48,469 bases of DNA from Promethearchaeota archaeon (GTDB lineage: Archaea > Asgardarchaeota > Lokiarchaeia > Sigyniarchaeales > SOKP01), in the NCBI GenBank assembly GCA_019057865.1, contig JAHLWP010000034.1, positions 1 through 48,469 of the forward strand, given 5' to 3'. Positions 25,357 through 33,456 of the stretch are shown here, in pieces (position 1 is the first letter of the stretch; every line of letters starts with the position of its first letter). Position numbers and translations under genes: made by a program. Below the pieces are notes generated by a model. The model was not told where the DNA came from and did not search any database. It saw only the letters and a program-made list of their open reading frames with translations.

Positions 25357-26091
25357 ATTTTAAATGAAAAGCAAAAAGAGAGGTATTCAAGACAAATTAT
25401 CTCTCCATTAATTGGTGAAGAAGGTCAAAAAAAGATATCGAATATTAGTGTATTGCAAATTGGAGCCGGAGGCCTTGGCTCACCATGTTCTATGTATCTT
25501 ACTGCTGCAGGGATAAAAAAATTAACCATAATTGACAATGATGTTTTAGATATTTCAAACCTTCAAAGACAAATTCTTTATAATGAAAATCAAATAGGTA
25601 AAGATAAAGCAGAATCAGCAAAGATGGTATTATCTAATCTAAATTCTGAAGTTCAAATACATACTTATAAAGAATATATAGAGGAAGATTCGATAAAAAA
25701 ATACATTAAAGGACACGATTTTATTGTAGATTGTTCTGATAATTTCGAGACTAAATTTTTAGTTAATAGAATTGCCTTAGAATATAATTTAAAGTGTGTA
25801 ATTGCTGGAATAAAGGATTTTTATGGGCAAATCATTACTATAAACCCAAAAAAGACTGCTTGTTATCAATGTGTTTTCAATGAACCAGATAAGATTTCTC
25901 CAGAAGAAGGACCCTTACCAGTAATAGGTGTTACTCCTGGCATATTAGGAACGTTAGAAGCTCTTGAAGTTATAAAAACAGCATTAGGACTTCCAAATTT
26001 GGAAAATAAGCTATTAATGGTAAATCTATTAGATTTAAGATTTAATATAATAGATATCATTAAAAATGAAAATTGCATTTGCTCAAAATAG
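25357..26091 (+). CDS. ThiF/MoeB/E1-like adenylyltransferase (N-terminus extends upstream of the track's TTG 25453; probable ATT start)
   Basis: In-frame upstream ERYSRQI...IGEEGQKKI; GAGGLG, SNLQRQ, DCSDNF, CYQC. Confidence 0.88.
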   Translation: MLNEKQKERYSRQIISPLIGEEGQKKISNISVLQIGAGGLGSPCSMYLTAAGIKKLTIIDNDVLDISNLQRQILYNENQIGKDKAESAKMVLSNLNSEVQIHTYKEYIEEDSIKKYIKGHDFIVDCSDNFETKFLVNRIALEYNLKCVIAGIKDFYGQIITINPKKTACYQCVFNEPDKISPEEGPLPVIGVTPGILGTLEALEVIKTALGLPNLENKLLMVNLLDLRFNIIDIIKNENCICSK

Positions 26092-32579: not shown

Positions 32580-32795
32580 ATGACGATAGAAAACCCAAAT
32601 TTATTAGAAAGGATTAGAAAAATTGAAAAAAGATTAGATGATTTGGAAAATCGATTATCATCTTTAGAAAGATTATTGAACAGAAGACCACTTCGATCAT
32701 TCCCTCGTCCCAAACCCTATCCTTCGCCTGAGCGTCCTGGATCACCTGGACCTCCAGGACCTCCTCCAGAGCCCTTTCGGTTTAAAGAAGATTAA
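32580..32795 (+). CDS. small coiled-coil plus proline-rich protein
   Basis: Heptads LERIRKIEKRLDDLENRLSSLERLL, then PRPKPYPSPERPGSPGPPGPPPEP. Confidence 0.65.
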   Translation: MTIENPNLLERIRKIEKRLDDLENRLSSLERLLNRRPLRSFPRPKPYPSPERPGSPGPPGPPPEPFRFKED

Positions 32796-32986
32796 ATATA
32801 TGTAAACTTGATAATGCAAATATCTTGATTTTAAGACCTAATTTTCTTGCTTTTTATGCAATATATCACAGTCAAATCATTTTAGACTGAAGTACATAAG
32901 ATTAGACAAAAATATTTAATTAAAAATTCAGACTATATCAATTTAACAACATATCAAATTAAAATTACAAAAAGACGTGATTAAAA

Positions 32987-33238
32987 ATTACTCAATATAG
33001 ATTTAGACTTACAGGGGTTCCACCTGATCAAGCTATAAAACTAATTGAGCTAGATCCAAATAGTTCAATAGCAGAAATTAAAAAAACTGTTCAGCGTGAA
33101 TATAAGTTAAATCCAATTTTAGCTATACAATTTATATTTAAGGGAAAAGTTTTACCAGATCAATTAAAATTCGCTAAAATAGGAATCCATCCAAAGAAAG
33201 ACGTAATTACAGTAATGGCAACCCAAGCAGGAGGTTAA
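32987..33238 (+). CDS. ubiquitin-like protein (83 aa, C-terminal GG), probable ATT start; absent from the ORF track
   Basis: ITQYRFRLTGVPPDQAIKLIELDPNSSIAEIKKTVQREYKLNPILAIQFIFKGKVLPDQLKFAKIGIHPKKDVITVMATQAGG*; SIAEIK and FIFKGKVL match ubiquitin TIENVK and LIFAGKQL. Confidence 0.85.
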   Translation: MTQYRFRLTGVPPDQAIKLIELDPNSSIAEIKKTVQREYKLNPILAIQFIFKGKVLPDQLKFAKIGIHPKKDVITVMATQAGG

Positions 33239-33251
33239 TTTTTTCAGTCGA

Positions 33252-33315
33252 GTGAGAAGAAACATCTCACGGGGTTTTTGAGAAGAAATAAATAAGCCGG
33301 CTTTTATTTTTTCTC
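33252..33315 (+). terminator. tandem hairpins downstream of the ubiquitin-like gene
   Basis: GTGAGA-N7-TCTCAC, then GAGAAGAAATAAATAAGC-CG-GCTTTTATTTTTTCTC followed by T tracts. Confidence 0.4.
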
Positions 33316-33456
33316 TTATTTTTTATTTTTTTCTAACGTTTTGGTAAGGATTTAAATTTATTTTAGTAAAGAATCGACCCAATTAAGTAAATTTGAATTT
33401 TAAATGCTTAATTGATTTTTAAGGGTTAAAAAGCTGGTTTTGTTTTAAATTGTATT

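Follow-up and report, generated by a model that had tools for sequence, protein, structure and literature searches.

The window, i.e. the whole stretch of 48,469 nucleotides analysed here, carries on its plus strand a frame of 83 codons that reads as ubiquitin-like and is opened by no canonical start codon. The locus thus raises the question of whether such a frame is a working gene and, if so, where its translation would begin and which kind of protein modifier it encodes. We consider it most likely that the locus is a real and intact gene for the ubiquitin of Lokiarchaeia, made from an ATT codon behind a Shine-Dalgarno (SD) box.

The ubiquitin gene (32987..33238, plus strand), an orthologue of Lokiarch_37670, comprises 83 codons from ATT at 32987 to GGT at 33233-33235, followed by TAA at 33236-33238. 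The upstream end of the frame reads TGA (32978-32980), TTA, AAA, ATT (32987), ACT, CAA, TAT and AGA, and the 3′ end reads GCA GGA GGT TAA, so that the protein ends in TQAGG directly before the stop. The segments SIAEIKKTV and IQFIFKGKVLPD are both found in the translation, and the sole in-frame ATG lies at 33215-33217, six sense codons before the stop. The preliminary description of this DNA had given the same frame (83 codons, an AGG-stop end, both segments, the lone late ATG and the TGA at 32978-32980), and all of these elements were recovered when the sequence was read again. In the ORF list of the window, no ORF of at least 40 aa opened by ATG, GTG or TTG occurs at the ubiquitin locus, and the expectation that gene callers would miss the gene therefore holds for callers limited to these three codons; standard gene finders miss it because its start is ATT and not ATG. 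The possibility that other data would show ATG at 32987 was also checked. Contigs of two other metagenome studies (X5 record 19 and X6 record 27) span 32892-33195, retain ATT and are identical to the window over 32977-32989; therefore, the ATT and the A5 run before it are not assembly errors. The conserved upstream neighbour of the gene is an ORF for a small protein of 71 aa (32580..32795, plus strand), coiled-coil and Pro-rich, whose Pfam matches were all sub-threshold; of 19 other congeners checked, 16 have its N-terminal 35 aa encoded ahead of their ubiquitin gene.

Over residues 19-82 the translation scores 37.2 bits with the Pfam ubiquitin family PF00240, whose cut-off is 25.4. No other protein of the genome matches PF00240 better, and none of the other PF00240 proteins of the genome has a GG end. 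In the PDB, the sequence is matched best by the Get5/Mdy2 UBL, ubiquilin and ubiquitin. A structure modelled with AlphaFold2 from 39 family members (pLDDT 92.5, pTM 0.81) presents a beta-grasp fold of the order beta-beta-alpha-beta-beta-beta, with strands at residues 2-8, 17-22, 46-51 and 73-79 and a helix at 28-38. Searched with Foldseek, the model returned 457 PDB matches at E ≤0.001, ubiquitins leading, and the top of the list was formed by the Caldiarchaeum ubiquitin (6fnn_C), ubiquitin, NEDD8 and SUMO, with TM scores from 0.75 to 0.84. The predicted structure is then a confident beta-grasp, nearest to archaeal and eukaryotic ubiquitin. The Pfam match, the modelled fold and its structural neighbours, together with orthology, uphold the earlier assignment of a ubiquitin-fold gene with a free C-terminal GG in an Asgard (Lokiarchaeial) genome.

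The same gene had been described as hidden and of the eukaryote-type ubiquitin-like (Ubl) kind; a new or hidden kind of Ubl is not supported, as the protein is the orthologue of one already published. Residues 2-83 of the window protein, compared by eye, are identical at 79 of 82 positions to Lokiarch_37670|Ub of Lokiarchaeum GC14_75, listed in Supplementary Data 1 of Hatano et al. 2022, Nat Commun (PMC9192718), and the differences are at residues 27, 28 and 31. The protein itself and its likely role are therefore known, and only the start codon of the window copy is unusual. In the NCBI records, ATG-started relatives carry the label 'ubiquitin-like protein'. Lokiarch_37670 begins with MTQYRF and ends with ATQAGGISIIH (PMC9192718). 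The two proteins share their length, the beta-grasp core, the VITVMATQAGG end and the stand-alone gene family; they differ in that the GC14_75 gene has an ATG start and a five-residue tail, ISIIH, past the GG, whereas the window gene has an ATT start and a bare GG.

The best structural match is the ubiquitin of Caldiarchaeum subterraneum (PDB 6fnn; Foldseek E 1.2e-5, TMq 0.76), at an identity of only 18%. Both proteins are archaeal with a GG end, and most relatives of the window gene are also short-tailed, with a tail that an Rpn11/JAB peptidase could cut. The Caldiarchaeum gene lies within its own E1/E2/RING/Rpn11 operon (PMC5654768, PMC6043591), whereas the window gene stands alone, with the E1, E2 and JAB genes on other contigs. 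With eukaryotic ubiquitin, NEDD8 and SUMO the window protein has in common the fold (TM 0.75-0.84), the GG terminus and an extreme sequence conservation; in addition, its segment FIFKGK aligns by eye with LIFAGK of ubiquitin, an alignment that would keep the equivalents of Ile44 and Lys48. On the other hand, the identity to eukaryotic ubiquitin is about 20%, the length is 83 residues against 76, and there is no polyubiquitin or ribosomal-fusion arrangement.

At the C-terminus, the two glycine codons (33230..33235, plus strand) stand directly before the stop, which corresponds to a mature-type end and agrees with family conservation: among the 39 family members G82 is invariant and G83 is at least 90% conserved. 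Since the window protein ends in Gly-Gly, it needs no C-terminal trimming. The mature GG end noted earlier is thus present in the window gene; however, it is the minority form in the genus, in which 48 C-termini were compared. Seven copies, the window included, have the bare GG; 36 have GG plus one varying residue (I in 15, F in 10, V in 6, A in 2, and R, N and S in one each); three have GG plus two or three residues; and two have a different, shorter C-terminus. A freely varying tail past an invariant GG reads as the signature of a trimmed precursor, and the extra residue of most relatives would presumably be cut off by a JAB/Rpn11-type peptidase.

Some variant copies were also seen. A second, more diverged ubiquitin copy (82-94% identical) is present in some congeners (G007:C104, G008:C116 and G018:C22), and a ubiquitin fragment of G018 is interrupted by three in-frame TAA codons. 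Among the relatives P0010, P0013 and P0056 and the loci L072 (G042) and L073 (G059), some are without the TVMATQAGG end: two forms run on for about 25 residues to FCC or EIC, and others end early at KKDVIKL, IRL or IKC. The ubiquitin match of G042 has an internal TAG.

Three E1/E2 sets and seven JAB genes are carried by the genome. The C41 set (G000 contig C41:59812-65170), a ubiquitin-type operon, includes two Ubls with acidic N-terminal extensions that end in STAG instead of GG, a membrane protein whose C-terminal domain is a Ubl, and then E1, E2 and JAB. The C18 set consists of a 528-aa E1 beside an E2, with no Ubl alongside, and the C54 set of JAB, E1 and E2. Within the genus, the C18 pair is 80-97% (E1) and 91-97% (E2) identical, an exceptional conservation that it shares with the ubiquitin. 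By inference only, the C18 E1 and E2 would be the likeliest cognate pair of the ubiquitin. Co-occurrence of the C18 E1 and the ubiquitin across 54 congeners did not help, since the gaps of the two genes do not coincide and there is no tracking beyond what incomplete metagenome-assembled genomes would give; the comparison is uninformative because the gaps look like incomplete genome assemblies. The C18 E2 (UQ_con; G000 contig C18:56758-57264, minus strand; locus L036/L132), next to the 528-aa E1, starts in the four-species clade of the window with ATC behind GGTGAT (TGA TGA GTA ATC), and in other congeners an in-frame TTG GTG is found a few codons upstream.

Two side observations concern these partners. 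In the E1 orthologues of G018, G019, G059, G062 and G067 the match is 30 nt longer and holds one in-frame TAA, possibly a recoding site or the result of a small insertion. A 362-aa protein of the same genome (G000 contig C86, locus L039:1162-2250, minus strand) has three RWD/UEV-like repeats and a C-terminal RING-like zinc finger and is a candidate E3 or ubiquitin receptor. The Pfam UEV family (PF05743) gave no match in the genome of the window, and the search says nothing because the control genomes were equally silent.

If the ubiquitin is handled as in Caldiarchaeum and eukaryotes, its Gly-Gly end would be adenylated by an E1, and an E2 would receive the protein before its transfer to lysines of the targets; conjugation of the window ubiquitin is inferred from this likeness. 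Ubiquitin-UEV interactions were found by yeast two-hybrid in Lokiarchaeota (Hatano et al. 2022, PMC9192718), where the GC14_75 ubiquitin is bound by UEV/Vps23-type ESCRT-I proteins.

The preliminary description had stated that the gene has no E1, E2, E3 or JAB neighbours. This is correct for the adjacent genes and incomplete for the wider locus, as a MoeB/ThiF-type E1-like gene of 244 aa (25357..26091, plus strand), itself with an ATT start, is found 7.6 kb upstream in the same orientation and shows a loose linkage with the ubiquitin gene. It matches PF00899 with 234 bits, the domain starting at residue 10. Its ATT lies two codons past a stop and 6 nt past AGGTGA, and its first canonical start comes 32 codons later; twelve orthologues present at the same start position ATT (eight), ATC (two) or ATA (two).

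This linked gene gives weight to a different view of the protein, namely that it is mainly a SAMP/Urm1-like carrier or modifier, activated by the MoeB/ThiF-type enzyme, without an E2 and not through a eukaryote-type E1/E2 cascade. Sulphur carriers, too, typically end in GG, and both genes have an AUH start preceded by a GGTGA box. In about 35 of 36 congeners, as well as in genus g5, the ThiF gene is found upstream of the ubiquitin gene, at a distance of 4.7-17 kb and with the same orientation. However, the two genes are neither adjacent nor operonic, and three complete or large genomes (G006, G032 and G038) show no linkage between them. The sequence and the modelled fold match ubiquitin, NEDD8 and SUMO and not ThiS/MoaD, for which the translation gave no Pfam match at E ≤10; with ubiquitin-type folds as its structural neighbours and the ThiF gene 7.6 kb off, the protein does not group with the ThiS/MoaD/SAMP type. 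In addition, the varying one-residue tail past the GG in most relatives points to maturation by a protease in the manner of ubiquitin, the genome has three true E1/E2 sets, and the GC14_75 orthologue binds a UEV protein in the two-hybrid assay (PMC9192718). A role mainly as a SAMP-like carrier is therefore unlikely, although of the explanations that compete with a conjugated ubiquitin it survives best.

Translation of the ubiquitin very probably starts at the ATT at 32987..32989. The 5′ ends of 63 ubiquitin copies were aligned, and at the codon that corresponds to 32987 the genus has 34 copies with ATT, 13 with ATG, one with ATA and none with ATC. In other genera ATG is found at the homologous codon or at most one codon away (MVQYRF, MAQFRF), and GC14_75 also has ATG. 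The choice among isoleucine codons is itself uneven, as the genome-wide usage of the three codons is about 53/35/13%, against 34 ATT, one ATA and no ATC at the start of the non-ATG congeners. The space for any other start is small: only TTA, AAA and ATT stand between the in-frame TGA and strand beta-1, which begins at residue 2 of the model, and in many ATT copies TGA and TAA, both in frame, are directly upstream, so that AAA and ATT alone remain.

The sequence before the ATT agrees with the start context of the genome. The 3′ end of its 16S rRNA is GGATCACCTCCT, and the consensus of 729 unambiguous ATG starts is GGTGAT with an A-rich spacer of 5 nt after it. The window has a GTGAT box (32977..32981, plus strand), which includes the in-frame TGA at 32978-32980 and ends 5 nt before the ATT, the spacing of the genome consensus. 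As a whole, the context GTGAT, TAAAA and ATT scores 6.19 bits, and the 90th percentile of the ATG starts is 5.14. Among the ATT-type orthologues the block from -14 to -6 (GGGTGTGAT) is 75-100% conserved, and the sequence further upstream is not conserved. The 3′ end of the 16S rRNA would pair with the GTGAT box and place the ATT in the P site 5 nt downstream; the AUU would then be read as methionine by the initiator tRNA, as is AUG in the relatives, a step suggested by the comparative and statistical evidence. The non-canonical start proposed earlier at this ATT is thus supported by the homologous ATG, the SD spacing, the unchanged independent contigs and the lack of a canonical alternative.

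The strength of the box differs between the two kinds of start. In every ATT-type ubiquitin gene of the genus at least 5 nt match the anti-SD exactly, with a median context of 8.3 bits, whereas the ATG-type genes match over 3-4 nt, with a median of 3.2 bits. This pattern is no more than suggestive of a stronger SD compensating for a weak start codon. When the start codon is placed on the C18 E1 tree there are at least three changes, which leave 2-3 independent contrasts, all in the same direction (sign test p = 0.5), a number of contrasts with which such a test cannot be significant. An AUU start would probably lower or tune the translation of the ubiquitin.

The ATT start is not special to the ubiquitin gene; it is a habit found across the genome and the genus. 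A scan for the best position-weight-matrix site upstream of the first canonical start gave only about 2-2.6-fold enrichment for ATT and ATA, and it was replaced by a stricter count of strong-SD sites because the matrix was too weak. In this count, candidate starts had to lie at most 12 codons past an in-frame stop, with no canonical start before them or within 15 codons after them, a coding-like downstream region and a strong SD context. The strong-SD 5′ ends of ORFs across the genome were ATG in 128 cases, TTG in 43, ATT in 23, GTG in 16, ATA in 8 and ACG in 5. For ATT the ratio of strong to weak contexts was 0.044, against about 0.005-0.013 for control codons, an enrichment of about 5-fold. 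In addition, 247 of 3,708 coding-like ORFs have at least 20 coding-like codons upstream of their first canonical start.

Textbook N-termini are found in the list of ATT starts, such as IRVGIIGCG of a Gfo/Idh/MocA oxidoreductase, IRAAVL of an alcohol dehydrogenase, and that of L7Ae. The likely non-canonical starts with a strong SD include L7Ae (C48:15435, plus strand), the Gfo/Idh/MocA oxidoreductase (C41:113454, plus strand) and the alcohol dehydrogenase (C37:19858, plus strand), all with ATT, and an aEF2-like N-terminus with ACG or ATA (C82:41095, minus strand). The gene of aIF1 (SUI1), the start-codon proofreading factor (G000 contig C77:24475-24804, minus strand; locus L131/L162), has no ATG, GTG or TTG before its zinc finger, with stops 2-3 codons upstream of the ATT, and its start is ATT in 29 of 29 readable congeners. 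This invariant ATT would fit feedback control by the fidelity factor and is no proof of it. Judging from these comparisons, the AUU start of the ubiquitin is one case of lineage-wide AUU, AUA, AUC and ACG starts behind strong ribosome-binding sites.

SD-directed AUU initiation is known from infC, the gene for IF3, and pcnB of E. coli. The fidelity function of infC/IF3 is discussed elsewhere (PMC9723500, PMC4705826). As in these two genes, the AUU of the ubiquitin stands at normal spacing behind an SD box, and in both organisms the proofreading factor is itself AUU-started, aIF1 here and IF3 in E. coli. Unlike in E. coli, the apparatus is archaeal (aIF1, aIF1A and aIF2), and at least about 20 strong-SD genes are involved, not two or three. 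A literature search for systematic AUU initiation in archaea gave nothing specific, and for SD-led AUU initiation in the Lokiarchaeial lineage the papers searched held only one methods remark, in which a 'rare ATT start codon' was proposed for the Lokiarchaeial tubulin AtubA (PMC13394414, Methods). That case is alike in that it comes from the same class of organisms and that the called protein lacked its first beta strand, which was restored from an RBS-spaced ATT. It is a remark on a single gene, without comparative or genome-wide support.

An alternative that keeps the frame and dispenses with the ATT start is a ribosomal frameshift, in which translation would begin at GTG 32977 and shift by +1 on GTG ATT AAA A|ATT into the ubiquitin frame, leaving the ATT as an ordinary isoleucine codon. 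The window does have this GTG in the -1 frame, followed by the A5 run; the same GTG and A run are present in the three closest relatives, and with A6 in many congeners, and in the relative P0007 (MIKITQYRF), which has one A fewer, the GTG is in frame. Not all congeners share this layout, however: several read GTG ATT AAC A, a non-slippery version, or GTG ATA TAA A, with a stop after two codons; in L006 the GTG is in a different frame, and in L019 it is replaced by TTG. The GTG lacks a separate SD and belongs to the GTGAT box, which stands at the consensus SD position, and other lineages put ATG in the place of the ATT and not of the GTG. The ATT starts of other genes are, moreover, independently supported. 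We therefore regard a frameshift as very improbable and retain initiation at the ATT.

The suggested search for conserved homologues showed that 36 of the 41 genomes sampled from the order, and 47 of the 54 from the genus, have kept the ubiquitin frame, with protein identities of 73-100%. Within the genus the protein is 95-100% identical, compared with about 41% for the neighbouring wHTH/zinc-ribbon protein. Across 45 congeneric copies the mean pS is 0.70, at which synonymous sites are saturated, and the mean pN is 0.0185, which gives a pN/pS of about 0.009; the gene is under very strong selection, and its frame goes well beyond what chance would give. That the lack of a canonical start marks a recent pseudogene, silent or decaying since an ATG to ATT change killed its translation, is practically negligible against 34 ATT-type congeners with an intact frame, synonymous saturation and a pN/pS of about 0.009, a conserved upstream SD box, and the same type of start in the essential genes of aIF1 and L7Ae.

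A more speculative proposal, which we put forward as a long shot, is that the AUU/AUH-started genes of the genus are a translational regulon governed by how much aIF1 is present, with the ubiquitin, the linked MoeB-type E1-like enzyme, in this clade an E2, and aIF1 itself among its members. If this were true, low aIF1 would relax the stringency of start selection, and the ubiquitin and its partners would rise together; protein modification would thereby be tied to an archaeal equivalent of infC/IF3 autocontrol. An enrichment of the ubiquitin pathway among AUH starts was considered and is weakened, as the ATC start of the E2 is confined to the four-species clade of the window.

The practical point of these results is the annotation of the ATT-started ubiquitin. 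The gene is present in 47 genomes of the genus, and in 34 of them it lacks an ATG, GTG or TTG start. Close relatives are found in public protein sets only as artefacts (P0002, P0003 with 328 members, and P0005): some begin with MW, consistent with a GTG followed by a TGA read as Trp, and others have long false N-terminal extensions. As the database copies are artefactual, surveys could wrongly score these Asgard genomes as being without ubiquitin. The gene also offers what appears to be a clean and well-controlled example of AUU initiation behind an SD box in archaea.

Regarding expression, metatranscriptome contigs of two studies (X19 and X20) closely match 33041-33299, i.e. the 3′ part of the gene only, and X19 record 2 shows 2 differences in 220 nt; the flanks are covered by DNA runs only. 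These contigs are a weak hint that the ubiquitin gene is transcribed, with DNA carry-over into the RNA libraries being possible, and no transcription start can be called because they are without the 5′ end. Past the gene, a T-rich low-complexity stretch (33288-33361) shows a thousands-fold 31-mer depth in all runs, which is an artefact of composition and not expression. The metatranscriptome contigs stop at the edge of this same stretch.
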